Shown: positions 682-18,715 of the stretch, piece after piece | How positions within the stretch are numbered: position 1 is the first letter of the stretch | How the letters are laid out: each line of letters starts with the position of its first letter | Assembly: GCA_029262475.1 (NCBI GenBank) | Contig: JAJCZG010000022.1 | Coordinates: 1 to 55,438, forward strand | Length of the DNA stretch: 55,438 nucleotides | Direction: 5' to 3' | Origin: Deltaproteobacteria bacterium | GTDB lineage: Bacteria > Desulfobacterota > GWC2-55-46 > JAJCZF01 | Position numbers and translations under genes: made by a program | The notes under the pieces: generated by a model | What the model saw: only the letters and a program-made list of their open reading frames with translations | Database searches by the model: none | What the model was told of the DNA's origin: nothing

Positions 682-2073
682 CTAACCAAAGAGCGCCAAC
701 TGCGGCGCTCTTCTCTCAGACACACTAACGGGGTAACGCCCCGTAAAACAAGCATCACAAAAACTGGACCCGGCCCCACTAACAGCCCGGTACATTCCCT
801 CAAAGCTCAGATACCCGAGCGTATCGGACGTTATAAATTCATTTATTTCACTAACGCTCATCTTGGCGCCGATAAGCTCCTCGGCGTCAGGCGTATCGAT
901 GCCATAATAACACGGGCTAACAGTCGGCGGAGAGCTTATCCTCATATGAACCTCCTTTGCGCCGGCGTTTCTAAGCATCTTTATGATCTTGCGGCTGGTC
1001 GTACCCCTTACGATAGAGTCGTCAACGACGATTACCCTCTTTCCCTTTACAAGGTCGCGAATGGGGTTAAGCTTAACCTTTACTCCGAAATGCCTGATCG
1101 AATCCTTCGGCTCGATAAAAGTCCTGCCGACGTAGTGGTTCCTGACCATACCCATCTGAAAGGGAATACCGGAGGCTTCCGCGTATCCTACAGCTGCAGG
1201 CCCCCCGGAGTCCGGTACGGATATAACAATGTCGCCGTCCACGGGATGCTCCTTGGCAAGCTCTCTACCGAACCTGATCCGAGCTTCGTAGACATTGGTA
1301 CCAAAGATCGTGCTATCGGGGCGGGCAAAATATACAAATTCGAATATGCACGGCGTATACGGGGCCTCTTCGAAGGGCTTGTGGGAGGTAAGCCCCTTAT
1401 CATCTATAACCAGCACCTCTCCGGGTTCGATATCCCTGACGAATTCGGCCTCTATAAGATCGAATGCGCACGTCTCCGAGGCAATTACCCACGAGTCCTT
1501 AAGCCTACCCAGTTGAAGGGGCCTGAAGCCGTGCGGATCCCTTGCGGCTATAAGCTTGTTTTCCGAGAGGAGCACGAGAGAGTACGCCCCCTGTACCCTT
1601 TTCAGCGCGCCCGTCAAGCGGTCGAGGAGCTTACTTTCCTTGCTCGTCGCGATAAGGTGCACGATGACCTCGGTATCCATATTTGACTGGAATATGGAGC
1701 CGTAAGCCTCAAGTTCGTCCTTTAACCTTCCGGCGTTCACCAGGTTGCCGTTGTGGGCCACGGCAAGCTCGCCCATGGAATACTCCACGAGAAATGGCTG
1801 GGCGTTCTTTATATGTGAAGCCCCGGTCGTGGAGTACCTGACGTGTCCTATGGCCTTCTCGCCCGGAAGTTTAGCTAGAGACTCTTCGCTAAAGACATCG
1901 GCGACGAGCCCCATCCCCTTGTGGGAGCTTAAGCTTCTATTCGATGAGACTATTCCCGCGCTCTCCTGCCCCCTGTGCTGAAGGGAATAGAGCCCGAGAT
2001 AAGTAATATTAGCTGCCTCCGGGTGATTATAGACGCCAAATACTCCGCACTCGTCTTTAAATTTGTCAAACAC
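682..2073 (-). CDS. purF: Amidophosphoribosyltransferase
   Basis: ECGVFG propeptide/Ntn cysteine, [20 protein letters not shown] loop [10 protein letters not shown], Fe-S cysteines (CDACF). Start moved to GTG 2073 ([10 protein letters not shown]). Confidence 0.97.
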
Positions 2074-2155: not shown

Positions 2156-4375
2156 TTACACAAAAAGTCCCGGGAGCGCGCCCTCCCAGGCATCTCTGAT
2201 AACCGAAAGTTCCAAATCGATAAATCCGTCGATAAAAAGGCGTTCGCCGCCAACTCTTCCAAGCTCGCTTAGGGTTACACCCTTCTCCGACGCTATAGCA
2301 TTTAATTTTTCAAGGTCGCCGGGGGCGACACTTACTATGATCCTGGACTGACTCTCTCCAAATAGCAGGGCATCGGCCCTCTCGCCCCCGGAGTGGCATT
2401 TAACGCTTACGCCTACTTCTCTCTCCGGCGCCAGACACGATTCCGCAAGGGCCACTGCAAGGCCGCCTTCCGAGAGATCATGGGCAGATTTAATTATACC
2501 AGCTTTTATAGCGTTTAAACAAGCTTCATCTACACTTTTGGCCTTCTTGAGGTCTATCCCCGGCGGCATTCCCCTCTCCAGGCCGTGCTTTACCTTGAGG
2601 TACTCGCTTCCGCCGAGTTCCGCCCCCATATCGCCAAGGAGAAGGATTACATCTCCCTCATCCTTGAACCAGATGGTGGTGTGGAGAGAAAGGTCTTCTA
2701 TAAGACCGACCATGCCGATGGTAGGCGTCGGGAAGATCGACTCCCCTGATGTCTCGTTATAAAAACTTACATTACCGCTTACGACCGGTATGCCGAGAGT
2801 GCGGCAAGCATTGCTTATCCCTTTTACCGACTCGCTGAACTGCCACATTACGTCCGCTCGTTCCGGGTTGCCGAAATTAAGGCAGTCGGTTACGGCAAGA
2901 GGTGTAGCGCCACTTACGGCAAGATTCCTCGCGGCCTCGGCAACGGCAATCTCTCCGCCCGTAAACGGGTCCAGATAACAGTACCTGGAGTTACAGTCCG
3001 TCGTAAGGGCTATAGCCTTATTCGTGCCCTTCACCCTCACGACCGCAGCGTCGGAACCGGGCCTTACGACCGTATCGGTCCGTACCATATGGTCGTACTG
3101 GCGGTAAATCCAGCGGCGGCTCGCGAGATTCGGCGAGGAGATCATCTCAAGCATTAAGGAGTTAAAATCCGAAGGGATATCAATAGCATTTAAATCAAGG
3201 GTGTTACGTTCGTCCTGCTCTTCCGGCCTCTTTATAGGGCGGTTATAGACCGGGGCAGCGTCGGTTAGCGAGTCTATCGGCATCTCGCCTTCGAGCGCGT
3301 CTCCGTTCATTAGCCTTAGCGTAGAGCCGTCGGTTACGCTCCCGATTACCGTTGCCTCAAGGTCCCATTTATGGACTATCTCCATCACCTTATCTTCGGT
3401 CCCGGCACTGACGACCATCAGCATCCTCTCCTGAGATTCCGAGAGCATCATCTCGTAGGCCGTCATCCCCTCCTCGCGACACGGTACCTTGCTTATATCA
3501 ATTTCTAGGCCGAGCCCGGCGCGAGAGGCCATCTCTACGCTCGACGAGGTAAGCCCGGCTGCGCCCATATCCTGAATGCCGATGATATAGTCGGTCTTAA
3601 AGACCTCAAGGCAAGCTTCGAGGAGTAATTTCTCCATAAACGGGTCGCCGACCTGAACGGTAGGGCGTCTCTCCTCGCCGCCCTCTCCGAAGACATCCGA
3701 GGCCATTACGGCTCCGTGTATGCCGTCCCTGCCAGTTCTAGACCCGACGTAAATCACCGGATTCCCTACGCCGGAGGCATATCCCTTAAATATCTTATCT
3801 GACTTTGCGATACCTGCGGTCATCGCGTTTACGAGGCAGTTTCCGTTATATGATTCGTTAAAATATACCTCTCCGCCTACCGTAGGGACGCCCATGCAGT
3901 TACCGTAACCGGCGATACCGGCTACTACGCCATCGAGCAGGAAAGGGGTCTTTTGGTGGTCGGCAGAGCCGAAGCGCAGCGAGTTCAGGTTAGCTATTGG
4001 CCTTGCGCCCATCGTAAAGACGTCCCTCATTATGCCGCCAACACCTGTGGCAGCGCCCTGGTACGGTTCTATAAAGGACGGGTGGTTGTGGCTCTCCATC
4101 TTAAATACACACGCGAGGCCGTCTCCGATAGCCACTACCCCGGCATTCTCCCCCGGCCCCTCGATAACATTTCGCCCGGTCGTAGGGAAATTCTTAAGAT
4201 GTACCCGTGAGGATTTATAAGAGCAGTGCTCGCTCCACATCACGGAGTAGATACCAAGCTCCAGCATATTAGGTTCACGCCCGAGGATATCCAGAATCTT
4301 CTGGTATTCGTCACCCTTGAGGCCGTGCTCCTCGATGACCTGATCAGTTATCTTCAATGCAGAGGACTCCATCAT
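2156..4375 (-). CDS. purL: Phosphoribosylformylglycinamidine synthase subunit PurL (small type)
   Basis: [40 protein letters not shown] motifs; 739 aa, no glutaminase domain. Confidence 0.97.
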
Positions 4376-14311: not shown

Positions 14312-14878
14312 TTAATTATTCTCTTCATCGCCGGTGACAGCGTTGTCGTCAGCATCGTCTTCGCCGTCTTTATCTTTATTCTTCCATTTCTTCTTGTTCT
14401 TTTTCTTGTGATCTTTCTTCTTCATATTGCGTCTTTCATCACGCATCGACTTTACGCCCTTGCTGAACTTCTGGAACTGCTCGGGGGTGAGTATCTCTTT
14501 GACGGCTAGCACGCTGTCTATCCTGTGGTCGATCATCTGCCCCTGGATATCCTTCAGGTCACCGGCGAGCGCGTTTATAGCTGACCTGTTCGTAGACTCC
14601 TTTTCGAGTTCGTCTGCGAGTTCCTTCTGCTTCTCGGCAAAGCCCTTAAAGAGCTTCTTACCGTTTACAATCTGTGCCTCTCTATTGGCCTCAAGTTTTT
14701 GCTGCTGGTCTTCGGTCAGGTCAAGCTCCTCCATCATGCGTTCCATATGCTGACCTCCTCCACCGCCAAAGCCCCTTACACCGGCCATGCCGCCACCCGG
14801 GCCCCTGGCAAAGGCCTGCGTCTCAAAGAGGAGCGCCGTAACCCCAAGCATTACAAATAAAACAAAAAATCTCTTCAT
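14312..14878 (-). CDS. Spy/CpxP/ZraP-like periplasmic helical protein
   Basis: Signal peptide ending AFA, Gly/Met-rich segment, two LTxxQ motifs (LTEDQQQ, LTPEQF), AGGAGG RBS. Confidence 0.85.
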   Translation of the reverse strand: MKRFFVLFVMLGVTALLFETQAFARGPGGGMAGVRGFGGGGGQHMERMMEELDLTEDQQQKLEANREAQIVNGKKLFKGFAEKQKELADELEKESTNRSAINALAGDLKDIQGQMIDHRIDSVLAVKEILTPEQFQKFSKGVKSMRDERRNMKKKDHKKKNKKKWKNKDKDGEDDADDNAVTGDEENN

Positions 14879-14897
14879 CGTCTTACCTCCTTTTAGT

Positions 14898-15431
14898 TTA
14901 CAAGAAATACTCTTCTATACTGGTTCCAAGCTTCACAAACTGAAGGCCGTTAGCAGTCTCGTCATCGCTACCAAGAGAGGAGAGAAACTCCACATCGTCA
15001 GCAAGGAATGCGTAACTCGCAGCCCCTCCATTCTCCATCGGTGAAAACACATAAACGCCTGTAAGTATCGCGGCTACGGCTACGGCCGCAAGCGCGGGGC
15101 GGGGGATAATAAAGCCGCTCAGTAGCCTTGAAAAGAAACCCGGCCTCTCTCTAACGCGGCTAACTTCGCTAACAGGCAGGGGGGATAAATCTTCCCTTAC
15201 GGCTCCGGACGAGAGAAGTTCGGCTTTAATGCCAAGCCACACGTCGTCGGGCGGCGAGATGTCGGAGAGCTCTCTAAAGGGTTCCAGGACGTGCTCCCTC
15301 ACCTCTTCACTAAAGGTAGCGCAAGCAGGGCAAGCCAGCAGGTGGGCATGAACTTCCCTTGAGGTCAAAGCCCCGGCCTCGCCGTCACTGAAGTCAGCGA
15401 CTATAAGCTCTCTTATCTCACAACATTCCAT
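14898..15431 (-). CDS. zf-HC2 transmembrane anti-sigma factor
   Basis: HLLACPAC zinc motif, single TM helix; ATG 15431 overlaps the sigma stop codon (TGATG). Confidence 0.85.
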   Translation of the reverse strand: MECCEIRELIVADFSDGEAGALTSREVHAHLLACPACATFSEEVREHVLEPFRELSDISPPDDVWLGIKAELLSSGAVREDLSPLPVSEVSRVRERPGFFSRLLSGFIIPRPALAAVAVAAILTGVYVFSPMENGGAASYAFLADDVEFLSSLGSDDETANGLQFVKLGTSIEEYFL

Positions 15432-15997
15432 CAGGCGCACCTCTCAACTCTACCGTGTTTCATAAGCGCCAGCCTCGCCCTTACGAGCCTCGTTCTGACG
15501 GTATTGATATTTATTCCCAGTGTATCGGATATCTCCCTGTAGCTTAAACCCTGAAGTTCCCTTAAGACGATACATTCCCGATGCTCCGGGCTTAGAAGAG
15601 CCAGCAAGGCTATGAGCTTTTCTTCATTCTCGATCTTTAGGACCTTCTTCTCGGCGCACTCTACGTCGGGGGAGTTCAGGTCGAGGAGAGCCTCGAAATC
15701 GTCGTTTACTCCCGGAGTACCCGGCTCGGTGGAGTGCTTCCTTAACCTTCCGAGCGCAGTATTTACAGCGACCCTGTAGAGCCACGACTTAAAGGACGAG
15801 CGATACTCAAAGTTACCGAGAGACTTAAATACCTTAATAAAGACCTCCTGAGTAACCTCAAGTGCCTCTTCCCTCTCCGAGGTAATGGCAAGGGTAAGCG
15901 AATATACAAACCCGGAATAAGCCCTGTATATCTCCTCAAAGGCACCCTCTTCGCCGGCTAACGCCAGCTCTATTATTTCTCTACTTATCTCTTTCAT
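15431..15997 (-). CDS. ECF sigma-70 factor (RpoE-like)
   Basis: Region 2 (QEVFIKVF...FKSWLYRVAVN) and region 4 (GLSYREIS...TVRTRLVRAR). Confidence 0.93.
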   Translation of the reverse strand: MKEISREIIELALAGEEGAFEEIYRAYSGFVYSLTLAITSEREEALEVTQEVFIKVFKSLGNFEYRSSFKSWLYRVAVNTALGRLRKHSTEPGTPGVNDDFEALLDLNSPDVECAEKKVLKIENEEKLIALLALLSPEHRECIVLRELQGLSYREISDTLGININTVRTRLVRARLALMKHGRVERCA

Positions 15998-16013
15998 ACG
16001 CCCCTTATATACC

Positions 16014-16041
16014 TAGACTCTTCAAAGGTAATAAAAGTTCC
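16014..16041 (-). promoter_or_regulatory. RpoE/AlgU-type ECF promoter, probably autoregulatory
   Basis: Minus strand GGAACTT-N16-GTCTA, 17 bp upstream of the sigma ATG. Confidence 0.7.
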
Positions 16042-16251
16042 GTCATATATGAATTATCTTTCATTTTATCCATTTTATCATGTATAAGAGCGAATTATAA
16101 GTGCTGGCCAAATGGCTAAAAACTCTTTATATAGGGTAGCAATCTACGGGCCGGAGAAGCAAGGCTCATGAATGAGCGGCCTTTCTCACGACTGGAGTGG
16201 GCCTTAAAGAAGAATACTCAATGTAATTGTGACACTTTCAAGCCGAGTCTA

Positions 16252-16353
16252 TAAAAAAAGAGGGTCGAAAGTTCACCACACCTTCGACCCTCTTCTAATT
16301 GAAATTCCGTCTCCCGGAGCAGGGTGGGAGAAAGAAAGTTCGTTGTCTTTGTT
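16252..16353 (-). ncRNA. Putative ~100-nt small RNA, copy 1
   Basis: Upstream TTGATT-N16-(TG)nTATATT promoter (16360-16387), internal UCUCCC/GGGAGA hairpin, 3' terminator hairpin plus U7; no ORF. Confidence 0.6.
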
Positions 16354-16508
16354 GAATATAATATAACACCCATTTATTAAAAATCAATAGACGGGAAGAT
16401 TAAGAGATTTTAAGGATCAAATCGGTCTTCTTTAGGCGGCTTCTATTGTTGATCCCCAAAGGCACCCTACTGGAGCCCCTGCAACGCCGGTGCGGATAGC
16501 AACGTGTA

Positions 16509-16610
16509 TAAAAAAAGAGGGTCGAAAGTTCACCACACCTTCGACCCTCTTTTAATTGTATTCCTGTCTCCCGGAGCAGGGTGGGAGAAGGAAAGTTCGT
16601 TGTCTTTGTT
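16509..16610 (-). ncRNA. Putative ~100-nt small RNA, copy 2
   Basis: Same promoter, hairpin and terminator architecture as copy 1. Confidence 0.6.
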
Positions 16611-16771
16611 GAATATAATATAACACTACTTTATTAAAAATCAATACACGGGAAGATTAAGAGATTTTAAGGTATAATATGTTGAGAGGTCGGTGATATA
16701 CGGATATTCCCTGTCTATATCCAGGGAAATATTTTCAGGCATGGATTGGAGCGGAGTTCAAAGGAAAGTCT

Positions 16772-16848
16772 TGGTGACGGTGGGTGGACTCGAACCACCG
16801 ACTCGGGGCTTATGAGACCCCTGCTCTGACCACCTGAGCTACACCGCC
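16772..16848 (-). tRNA. tRNA-Met (CAT), probably elongator
   Basis: GGCGGTGTAGCTCAGGTGGTCAGAGCAGGGGTCTCATAAGCCCCGAGTCGGTGGTTCGAGTCCACCCACCGTCACCA: 77-nt cloverleaf, CAT anticodon, paired G1-C72, encoded CCA. Confidence 0.95.
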
Positions 16849-16867
16849 GTATAAAGAAGCAAAAGAG

Positions 16868-16896
16868 ATTATATGATATTTTCTACGGCGTTTCAA
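16868..16896 (-). promoter_or_regulatory. Sigma70 promoter of tRNA-Met
   Basis: TTGAAA-N17-TATAAT, ~20 bp upstream of the tRNA. Confidence 0.75.
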
Positions 16897-17035
16897 CCGT
16901 GATTATCGCCTTAAGGCAATCTATTTGCTTTCCGGCTAAGATTCGCATGAGCTTGCCCCTTACGGAGCTATTGAAAGTTCAAAGAAAAGCGCGGCTGAGC
17001 AGTAGTAAGGCGGCTCCAAGAGGTAAAAGACCGCC

Positions 17036-18715
17036 CTACAGGCCGTGCGTCAGGAGGTAACTCGTCTCCTTACTTCCCTTCAAAAAAAGCCCTGTCCCCT
17101 CCACAACGAGAAGGGTAATTTCATTCTTGCCGTCTCCGTCGAGGTCTGTGAGGGTAAAGTCGGCTATATAACCGCTGATATCTTTAGTACGCCACTCCTC
17201 TTCCAGATTTGCTACGCCCCATGAGAGGGCAGAGGCAAAGCCGTCCTTAAAGCGGGTCTTTCTCCTGGCGTACTTGCCAAACCCTTCGGTATTGTTCTTC
17301 TTTAAGAGAATTTCGCTCTTCCCGTCGCCATCAAGATCCGCTTGTATGAAGTCTCCCCGGACCGTTACGAATATCAAGGTATCGCCATCGGAGGTATTCT
17401 CCGGCGTATCGAAGGTGTTGAGCGTCCCGCCAAAGCTCTCAGGACTAGTCCAGTATATCGACCACTCGCCCTTTTCGTCAGCCCTGTAGACTTGAAGAGA
17501 CCCGCGCTCGCCGATCCTCACAAGCTCTCTCTCCCCCTCGCCCGTCAGGTCAAAGAAATGATAGCCGAAGAGCCCTTCGCGGATTATTTCCCTGGGGAGC
17601 GTTATCTTACCGGCGTCCACGTAGCCACCGGGGCCCTTTGTAATCCTTATTACCTTACTGAGGTAGCCCCTGGCGGGCCTGAAACCCTGAGCAATCAAGG
17701 CGGTCTCACCGTTACCGAAATCCACCGCCCTCGCAAAGCGGCCCTTGAAGACAGAGTGGTCGGCCCTTTTATATTCGCCGTCCGAATACTCTATCAGATA
17801 CGTCTCGGCCACTCCCGAAGTGAGAGAGGAGACGTAAACCTCCGGGGTTCCGTCCCCGTCTATATCAGCTGAAGAGATGTATATATTGATGCTGCCCGGG
17901 GTATTATTATCCAAGCTCATCTTCGCTGTAAGCCCCTTCGGGCCGAAGTCGGCAATCAGGAGCTTGCTCCTGCTCATGAGAAAGAACTCTTCGGTTCCGT
18001 CACCGTCAAGATCGGCGGTACTCATAGCATGGTAGAAGTCGTCCTGGTTAGCGCTCCTCCAGGTGGAGACTTTATCTTCGGGATTCGTCTTCCTGGTTAC
18101 AACTATAAAGCCTTCTCCATCACCGGCTCCAGGAGCCGCAGTTACACCTGTCTTCTGAGCGCTCTCTTCCTTAAAGATACCGGTATAGGTAATATCGACT
18201 GGTTCTTTAGTCGAGAAGGTCTTCTTTATCTCGGAGACGGCCCCTTTGGAGACCGAGTCGGCCATAGCAATGACAGATGAAATGTCATTACCGCTCGCAT
18301 ATAACGGCTTGGAGAGCTTGCTCTTCACATTTAAGAGTTTAGCGTCGAGGCTTACGCTTTCGCCAAGGACCGTCACGCTCCCGAAGAGTACGAAATCTAC
18401 ACCAAGCGCCACTGCGGCCTTTAACGCCTCCTCTTCTGTAACCGTACCCGATGTAAGTGGAGAAAGCGCCTCTTTGACCTTATCCGACCTCTCTAGCAAA
18501 ATGGTTGGCTCTGAGCCTAGGCGAGACGAGAGCATATCGGTTAGGGCAGGGCCTATATAGCTGTGCTCGTCAGCGGCGTTTACGCTCCATTCCAGCACAG
18601 CTACGCGCGCTCCAGCGCCGTCCACGCTAACAGCAGGAAGTGCTACGGAGAGTATAATCAGAAGAGATGCAATTATTATAAACGTCTTCTTCACTGTATA
18701 AACCGGTCCCGTCAA
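17036..18715 (-). CDS. Exported FG-GAP/VCBS-repeat protein with N-terminal TolB-N/CsgG-like domain
   Basis: Signal peptide; DFVLFGSVT...SLDAKLL; several DLDGDGxxE-type repeats. Confidence 0.8.
   Translation of the reverse strand: MTGPVYTVKKTFIIIASLLIILSVALPAVSVDGAGARVAVLEWSVNAADEHSYIGPALTDMLSSRLGSEPTILLERSDKVKEALSPLTSGTVTEEEALKAAVALGVDFVLFGSVTVLGESVSLDAKLLNVKSKLSKPLYASGNDISSVIAMADSVSKGAVSEIKKTFSTKEPVDITYTGIFKEESAQKTGVTAAPGAGDGEGFIVVTRKTNPEDKVSTWRSANQDDFYHAMSTADLDGDGTEEFFLMSRSKLLIADFGPKGLTAKMSLDNNTPGSINIYISSADIDGDGTPEVYVSSLTSGVAETYLIEYSDGEYKRADHSVFKGRFARAVDFGNGETALIAQGFRPARGYLSKVIRITKGPGGYVDAGKITLPREIIREGLFGYHFFDLTGEGERELVRIGERGSLQVYRADEKGEWSIYWTSPESFGGTLNTFDTPENTSDGDTLIFVTVRGDFIQADLDGDGKSEILLKKNNTEGFGKYARRKTRFKDGFASALSWGVANLEEEWRTKDISGYIADFTLTDLDGDGKNEITLLVVEGTGLFLKGSKETSYLLTHGL

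Follow-up and report, generated by a model that had tools for sequence, protein, structure and literature searches.

A tandem pair of probable sibling small RNA genes with an invariant C-rich loop in an uncultured deltaproteobacterial lineage

Two repeat units and their predicted RNAs

The stretch of DNA analysed here, called the window, is a contig of 55,438 nucleotides (nt) from a Deltaproteobacteria bacterium of the Desulfobacterota (assembly GCA_029262475.1, contig JAJCZG010000022.1). Between a tRNA-Met gene and an operon for an extracytoplasmic function (ECF) sigma factor it carries two direct repeat copies, units A and B, each laid out on the minus strand as a complete putative gene for a small RNA (sRNA) of about 100 nt (Table 1). 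It is likely that they are a real pair of non-coding RNA genes. A repeat finder, reading positions 15,900–17,100, gives 169 nt for each copy, 93% identity and 257 nt from start to start, and our own count finds 11 differences in the 169 positions. The pair is absent from the output of Tandem Repeats Finder since there are only two copies, with a spacer between them. The copies are homologous from about 28 nt before the −35 element to the U-run, and in a 211-nt alignment identity collapses on either side of these limits. No further copy was found in the genome to which the window belongs (G000; 2.40 Mb, 145 contigs, rated 100% complete).

Both copies have the same minus-strand promoter, TTGATT-N16-TGtTATATT, which was listed by the promoter scan with 9 of 12 consensus positions; the region holds seven promoter-like sites compared to 2.2 ± 1.7 in shuffled sequences. 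The presumed start of the RNA is approximately 7 nt beyond the −10 element, with the sequence AACAAAGACAACGAAC. Upstream of the −35 element lies a conserved block of 28 nt, which reads CCTTAAAATCTCTTAATCTTCCCGT(C/G)TA and holds CTTAA twice, about 10 nt apart. This block may be a site for an activator or, equally, an element of the UP type. A search of G000 with patterns for the block and promoter gave no further copy.

The 104-nt RNAs predicted from the minus strand fold at −40.5 kcal/mol (A, z −5.44) and −41.2 kcal/mol (B, z −5.26), and none of 200 shuffled sequences was as stable; the plus strand folds less well (z −2.8 and −3.8). From 5′ to 3′ the architecture consists of an unstructured A/G-rich tail, a hairpin with the 10-nt loop ACCCUGCUCC, a variable linker and a terminator hairpin, AGAGGGUCGAAG.../...UUUCGACCCUCU, followed by seven T residues. 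The loop is fully unpaired in the fold ensemble. A first-pass annotation made from the letters of the window had described tandem copies of 166 bp with this promoter and its extended −10 TG, these limits of homology, an RNA with a U/C difference (RNA position 22) and a hairpin followed by U7. Sequence, alignment and promoter scan bear it out in all but the length of the unit.

It had also been stated that the units contain no open reading frame (ORF). Copy A in fact has two, one of 51 residues on the minus strand and one of 45 residues on the plus strand, from which it might be argued that the unit is a small-protein gene encoding a micro-peptide. Copy B has no ORF of 40 residues or more, however, and the 51-residue ORF starts before the predicted RNA start, at an ATG that is missing from copy B. 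There is no AUG in the two window RNAs, and the only AUG in the orthologous RNA described below sits in a non-homologous terminator. The statement thus holds for conserved ORFs, and we give almost no credence to a micro-peptide gene.

Table 1. Features of the two units and their surroundings, in positions of the window unless a locus is named.
Feature	Position	Strand	Basis and remarks
sRNA unit A, upstream block through U-run	16247..16415	−	Direct repeat; alignment boundaries
Conserved upstream block A, CCTTAAAATCTCTTAATCTTCCCGTCTA	16388..16415	−	About −63 to −36; 1 of 28 positions differs between paralogues; partly kept in G001
Promoter A	16360..16387	−	Promoter scan; TTGATT, 16-nt spacer, TG-extended TATATT
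Predicted transcript A, ~100–104 nt	16250..16353	−	Start (near 16353) and end predicted from promoter and U-run
Hairpin 1 of A	16310..16331	−	Fold; 6-bp stem UCUCCC/GGGAGA, 10-nt loop ACCCUGCUCC at 16316–16325; proposed seed
Terminator A	16250..16296	−	Inverted repeat, fold; 17-bp stem, 7-nt loop GUGGUGA, U-run
sRNA unit B, upstream block through U-run	16504..16672	−	Direct repeat; alignment boundaries
Conserved upstream block B	16645..16672	−	Alignment with block A
Promoter B	16617..16644	−	Promoter scan; same elements as A
Predicted transcript B, ~100–104 nt	16507..16610	−	Start and end predicted from promoter and U-run
Hairpin 1 of B	16567..16588	−	Fold; loop at 16573–16582
Terminator B	16507..16553	−	Inverted repeat, fold; 17-bp stem, U-run
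tRNA-Met (CAU)	16772..16848	−	Rfam tRNA match; upstream neighbour; promoter TTGAAA-N17-TATAAT at 16868–16896
ECF-type promoter-like motif GGAACTT-N16-GTCTA	16014..16041	−	Sequence; before the sigma gene, outside the sRNA units
Downstream operon	14312..15997	−	Pfam; ECF sigma factor (15431–15997), zf-HC2 anti-sigma-like protein (14898–15440), LTXXQ/Metal_resist periplasmic protein (14312–14878)
G001 sRNA locus	L010, ~1480–1650		Same architecture as the window units

The 11 differences between the copies are unevenly placed. The −35 element (6 positions), the extended −10 element (9), the 5′ tail (17) and the upper stem with the loop (22) have none, and there is one each in the upstream block (28), the 5′ side of the lower stem (5), the terminator (41) and the last 9 nt; three fall in the 16-nt promoter spacer and four in the 13 positions of the 3′ side of the lower stem and the linker, at 16297–16309 in A and 16554–16566 in B. 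The sole difference within the terminator exchanges a G-U for an A-U pair. When block, −35, extended −10, 5′ tail, upper stem with loop, and terminator are taken together as signal-bearing, a choice of classes made post hoc, they account for 123 positions and only 2 of the 11 differences (hypergeometric P = 1.5e-4); the other 9 are shared among promoter spacer, lower stem, linker and the last 9 nt. The differences thus appear to avoid the parts predicted to be functional, in support of a pair of working sRNA genes.

An orthologue in another genus and the range of the family

Among 41 related genomes, BLAST gave a single true match (E 4.3e-12, 76% identity over query positions 13–106), in a member of the same family but another genus (G001); the remaining matches were 17–26 nt long with E of at least 0.008. 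A non-coding stretch of about 95 nt with 76% identity stands out between these two genomes, since the other proteins compared are only 40–49% identical. The G001 copy keeps a related upstream block, a −35 element TTGAAT, a spacer, TGTTATAGT, the start region and an A/G-rich tail. Its loop is identical to ACCCUGCUCC at 10 of 10 positions, and is therefore the same in all three aligned sequences. The stem above which it sits is CUCUCC/GGAGAG; the two C-G pairs that close the loop are kept, and the next four pairs are altered on both sides with pairing retained. RNAalifold, applied to the three 5′ halves, finds 9 pairs, and in 6 both partners have changed without loss of pairing; this apparent covariation lends the hairpin modest support from a thin alignment. 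The terminator is unrelated, with a stem of at least 15 bp and U8, as are both flanks. The whole G001 RNA folds at −35.9 kcal/mol (z −4.77).

A search for public sequencing runs with this sequence listed 7, none of them of RNA. Contigs from four DNA runs were compared to the window at 80% likeness or more, and diverged versions were found in three other studies. Counts of changes in such contigs are lower bounds, and the word none refers to the changes listed. One contig (X6 record 4, labelled marine) bridges positions 16226–16735 with 68 other letters and 11 gaps and, as it spans both copies, shows that a relative with about 85% likeness has the tandem pair too. At least 11 changes are found across the 169 positions of its unit A, compared to at least 18 in the initial 49 nt of the intervening spacer. 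A second (X7 record 6, labelled marine, from another study) matches positions 16257–16415 only and is unlike the window on both sides, with the same boundaries as the paralogues; it has many changes in the 5′ tail (16338–16353) and linker, and its −10 element has changed from TATATT to TATAGT, as in G001. The proposal that the upstream block is conserved is borne out both by its partial retention in G001 and by this boundary. A third (X5 record 3, labelled sediment) matches positions 16253–16343, its stop at 16253 again falling near the unit boundary, and its loose end on the minus strand has TGTTATAGT at the right distance. The upper stem and loop (16310–16331) have no change among those listed in the four runs that cover them.

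The units probably form a lineage-restricted sRNA family that is new to Rfam. When the whole window was searched against Rfam 15, only the tRNA reached the gathering score, in agreement with the first-pass annotation, which did not recognise the family. At positions 15900–17100 and E up to 10 the matches were noise: MIR821 (19.3 bits, gathering score 249), snoR22 (22.6, 50) and lincRNA-p21 (15.6, 75). The G001 copy matches SR6_antitoxin with 28.9 bits (gathering score 55) and E 0.009, a match absent for the window copies. A covariance model built from the block, promoter, tail and hairpin (R1) and run on 77 genomes of the order found copy A (144.2 bits), copy B (142 bits) and the G001 copy (111.4 bits), and otherwise nothing better than E 0.76; three hits at E 0.76–0.99 were inspected and judged noise. 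Run on 96 genomes of the class, it found G000 and G001 only, at E of 0.1 or less. The BLASTN search and covariance model that had been proposed as checks thus yielded one orthologue and no extra copies in G000.

Pattern searches agree with this picture. In the third genome of the family (G002), rated 100% complete, no copy was found with BLAST, the covariance model or a loop pattern with up to two mismatches, for which the counts equalled those of the reversed control. An exact pattern from the −10 element to the loop matched 4 stretches of genome contigs, of which the one in G001 is real, and 6 stretches of metagenome contigs, none of them real; this pattern is too strict for diverged relatives. 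A looser pattern gave 2 other matches in a sample of 401 genomes of the phylum, which did not include G001, and 4 with the reversed control. The family is thus narrowly distributed, in 2 of 96 genomes of the class and a few metagenomic relatives.

Two copies 93% identical, adjacent, and beside a tRNA gene, a common site of rearrangement, might also be expected of non-functional or selfish DNA: a recent intergenic duplication, a relic promoter and terminator, or an element like a miniature inverted-repeat transposable element (MITE) or repetitive extragenic palindrome (REP). Many dispersed copies with target-site duplications had been named beforehand as the sign of a MITE or REP-like element; what is found is two adjacent copies in 2.4 Mb of G000 and one copy in G001, with neither terminal inverted repeats nor target duplications, and the inverted repeats in the units are the terminator stems only. 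The unit has been kept across genera in a different genomic context, in the relative about 85% alike, which retains the pair, divergence is far greater in the intervening spacer than in the units, and the differences between the paralogues avoid the signal-bearing parts. An origin as selfish or non-functional DNA is largely refuted by these observations, and we regard it as very improbable.

The loop as a candidate pairing site

Promoter-like and terminator-like signals bound a short non-coding region with a conserved and accessible loop, as would be expected of an sRNA gene, and the presence of paralogous copies, each with its own predicted promoter and terminator, is what would be expected of sibling sRNAs. 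An sRNA interpretation is the best reading of the locus. More specifically, units A and B are probably two paralogous, independently transcribed sibling sRNA genes whose products use the C-rich loop to pair with mRNAs and probably need neither Hfq nor ProQ; that they act by pairing through the loop has, taken by itself, a somewhat better than even chance. Only the 10-nt loop is both accessible and invariant, in paralogues and orthologue as well as in the metagenomic variants as far as listed. The tail and linker vary and the terminator is replaceable, and for this reason an antisense RNA with its seed in the loop is favoured. The first-pass annotation had noted that base-pairing sRNAs often have a CU-rich anti-Shine-Dalgarno seed and had pointed to the C-rich loop; it is this loop that is conserved and accessible, and the CU-rich stretch that precedes it is mostly paired and is not kept in G001. 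The annotation had also pointed to the terminator loop as a region of interaction, which is not upheld, as that loop is rich in G and gives way to another sequence in G001.

Each unit would be read from its housekeeping-type promoter, with the 28-nt block recruiting an activator or acting as an UP-like element, and the strong intrinsic terminator would end transcription to release an RNA of approximately 100 nt. The exposed loop could then pair in antisense with G-rich stretches of mRNA. The CUCC at the 3′ end of the loop may pair with the GGAG core of Shine-Dalgarno sequences and so block binding of the ribosome, with repression of translation as the expected result. Having two copies probably serves dosage or permits regulation that differs slightly between them. 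Hfq (PF17209) had no match in G000 (5 of 14 control genomes were matched), and ProQ (PF04352) was likewise not found in that genome. An sRNA with a loop seed that works independently of these chaperones would fit their absence from the search results.

The design is a familiar one. Some of the LhrC sRNAs of Listeria monocytogenes lie in tandem, and LhrC acts without Hfq. These RNAs, LhrC1–5, are the closest documented functional analogue, being near-identical, present in several copies and provided with their own promoters, as are the units described here. As reported for LhrC1–5, single-stranded C/U-rich regions of these RNAs, including a hairpin loop A, bind Shine-Dalgarno regions, transcription depends on the response regulator LisR and responds to envelope stress, and envelope proteins are down-regulated (PMC5880928). 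LhrC is reported to have three CU-rich regions, one of them in the terminator loop, compared to a single conserved C-rich loop and a terminator loop GUGGUGA in the window units. The two belong to different phyla and have no similarity in sequence or by Rfam covariance model.

AbcR and CcsR sRNAs also use C/U-rich anti-Shine-Dalgarno motifs, and CcsR copies follow a small ORF and share its transcript, unlike the units in the window, each of which has a promoter of its own. Adjacent duplicated sRNA genes with their own promoters and terminators are known as PrrF1/2, OmrA/B, AbcR1/2, the Neisseria siblings and CcsR1–4, none of which gave an Rfam match here. Sibling sRNAs are treated in reports on AbcR1/2 (PMC8844928), OmrA/B (PMC13473878) and Neisseria (PMC5362039). 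Most tandem siblings depend on Hfq, which was not found in G000. In Caulobacter, the stress sRNA GsrN is reported to recognise its targets by an exposed C-rich loop (PMC5869019; bioRxiv 10.1101/344820). GsrN differs in being a single-copy, processed RNA dependent on sigmaT, and has no sequence relation to the window units.

Several observations weigh against an sRNA pair with a loop seed. A terminator scan of the region listed three sites, neither sRNA hairpin among them; the hairpins were probably missed since extension of the stem consumes part of the T-run, and the terminator call is based on the hairpin with its T-run and on the folds rather than on that scan. The opposite strand of the G001 unit folds at least as well as the proposed RNA (z −5.85 compared to −4.77), so that folding alone cannot set the strand there, which is assigned from the promoter and U-run. 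The four upper-stem pairs that appear compensatory could also be explained by one register shift of the alternating CU/GA stem. Fully alignable sequences number three, two of them near-identical paralogues and the third their orthologue, and the finding of no hairpin change in the run contigs is valid for the listed changes.

Target prediction adds to these points. From 2225 crude gene calls in G000, 2188 start regions were compared with tail, loop and linker in a duplex energy model without an accessibility term, and none of the three scored better there than in intragenic windows or than five shuffled versions of each seed. For the loop, the mean duplex energy was −10.9 at starts, −11.4 in intragenic windows and −10.5 to −11.7 for the shuffled seeds. 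Exact complements of the loop occur 50 times in G000 (two of these are the sRNA genes themselves) compared to 47 for a reversed control, and they show no enrichment at starts, also when wobble pairs are allowed; G001 has 21 exact sites and 26 for the control. Sites with conserved flanks in both G000 and G001 were limited to the sRNA itself, tRNA-Pro and a coding stretch of a histidine kinase. As predicted targets, the neighbouring genes rank from 143 to 2176 of 2188.

An invariant loop with no mRNA complement standing out would also suit a decoy or scaffold RNA, in which the invariant hairpin is the recognition site of a protein that the RNA titrates or delivers. CsrA (PF02599) is encoded in G000 (C122:66439–66597, plus strand), and each of the three RNAs has a GGA in the 3′ half of its hairpin 1. 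This GGA is paired in the stem, however, and apart from the terminator there is a single hairpin; the sponges CsrB and RsmY have multiple GGA motifs in hairpin loops, and the loop here has none. There was no match in Rfam to 6S-like or other protein-binding RNAs, and nothing points to a particular partner protein. A decoy function is therefore considered unlikely, and base-pairing through the loop is preferred.

Some candidate target sites were set aside. The loop has a 9-nt complement in tRNA-Pro(UGG) of both G000 (C62, minus strand) and G001 (C13), reaching from the 3′ half of the anticodon stem into the variable region; as one site among 50, and within the fold of a tRNA, it is probably a chance match. 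A site found by eye on C21 falls inside the full-length dnaA gene, an open frame of 468 residues. The start region of a [NiFe] hydrogenase large-subunit gene, GGAGUAGGG, is kept in G001 but is uninformative as the whole locus is 94% identical. Taken as a whole, this hydrogenase locus (G000 C123:11405–12964; G001 C36) has 98% identity in protein and about 94% in DNA, and the gene is absent from G002. Given the 40–49% identity of the other proteins, this similarity points to a gene transfer in the recent past or to wrong binning of a contig in one metagenome-assembled genome.

Very little is known of RNA regulators in uncultured lineages of the deltaproteobacterial type. A literature search on sRNAs of this group found only a preprint on Desulfovibrio riboswitches and sRNAs, and a search for the loop sequence gave 10 papers, all of them lacking the 14-nt loop motif. 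The units may offer an entry point to post-transcriptional control in a genome in which neither Hfq nor ProQ was found, and could seed a new Rfam family. The general picture is unchanged by them, as sibling sRNAs with C-rich loop seeds are already familiar.

Neighbouring genes and envelope stress

The position of the units between tRNA-Met and the ECF operon, as first described, is confirmed by the tRNA and Pfam matches. The third gene of the operon encodes a periplasmic protein of the LTXXQ and Metal_resist families, which we take to include CpxP and Spy. A motif of the ECF type, GGAACTT-N16-GTCTA, stands 17–20 nt before the start codon of the sigma gene and also precedes the orthologous operon in G001 (L078 ~3297–3324, plus strand), a conservation that suggests autoregulation. 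A genome scan found a similar motif at C7 ~39869 (plus strand) of G000. The motif is 220 nt from the sRNAs and is not found ahead of them; their promoters are sigma-70-like and differ from the ECF-type promoter of the operon. The adjacent tRNA-Met gene has a promoter of the same type as those of the sRNAs, a type therefore in use in this genome. Between that gene and unit B, at 16707–16728, is a hairpin of 7 bp (TTCCCTG...CAGGGAA) that is terminator-like on the plus strand only, and since it has no U-run on the minus strand, transcription of the tRNA might continue into unit B.

In G001 the sRNA lies downstream of an S-adenosylmethionine-dependent methyltransferase gene and about 460 nt ahead of a gene for an HtrA-like protease (Trypsin_2 and PDZ). 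The next downstream gene is thus on the same strand and concerned with envelope quality control in both genomes, as it might be if the units were cis-acting leaders or attenuators, in which a promoter and a conditional terminator gate an envelope-stress gene: the ECF operon in G000 and the protease gene in G001. Tandem attenuators are known in other systems. Against this, a conserved ECF-type promoter that belongs to the ECF operon itself lies between the sRNAs and the start codon, the 160 nt upstream of the orthologous G001 operon contain no such unit, and the G001 unit lies about 460 nt from the protease gene. The terminator stems are long and perfect, with no conserved antiterminator pairing, and it is the upstream hairpin that is conserved while the G001 terminator is unrelated. 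The units probably do not serve the ECF operon as a leader, and a leader of any kind seems improbable.

The sRNAs of the sigmaE and Cpx responses of enterobacteria offer a further comparison. RybB, MicL and CpxQ are envelope-stress sRNAs. Like MicA, they end at an intrinsic terminator, as the window units are predicted to do, for which the tie to the envelope is the adjoining genes. The sRNAs of the sigmaE type have an ECF promoter, depend on Hfq and carry their seed at the 5′ end, in contrast to the sigma-70-like promoter, the lack of a detected Hfq and the proposed loop seed of the units. MicA is reported to depend on sigmaE (PMC1851643).

The first-pass annotation had placed the units beside an ECF envelope-stress operon. 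The neighbourhood would suit a tie to envelope stress; the promoter is sigma-70-like rather than of the ECF type, and the sRNA location is not conserved, since the ECF operon of G001 and the HtrA homologue of G000 (C97) both have no sRNA nearby. With gene neighbourhood as the evidence, a tie of the sRNA pair to envelope stress is put forward tentatively. Equally speculative, in our judgement, is the fuller proposal that a chaperone-independent RNA family private to one little-known uncultured lineage is the RNA arm of an envelope-stress response. If so, an activator at the upstream block (about −63 to −36) would turn on the one or two sRNA copies, and the invariant C-rich loop would silence mRNAs for envelope proteins, making the family a counterpart of MicA, RybB and LhrC of independent origin. 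Its placement by the ECF/LTXXQ operon in one genus or by an HtrA-like gene in the other would then reflect a functional link.

The gap between the G001 sRNA and the HtrA-like gene contains an ORF of 171 residues with no Pfam match. In the same gap (L010 1700–1890, plus strand) a motif of about 22 nt (GCGAAAT-TAAGA-CACA-CTGT-like) occurs twice, both times next to a short hairpin, and may be a further regulatory element.

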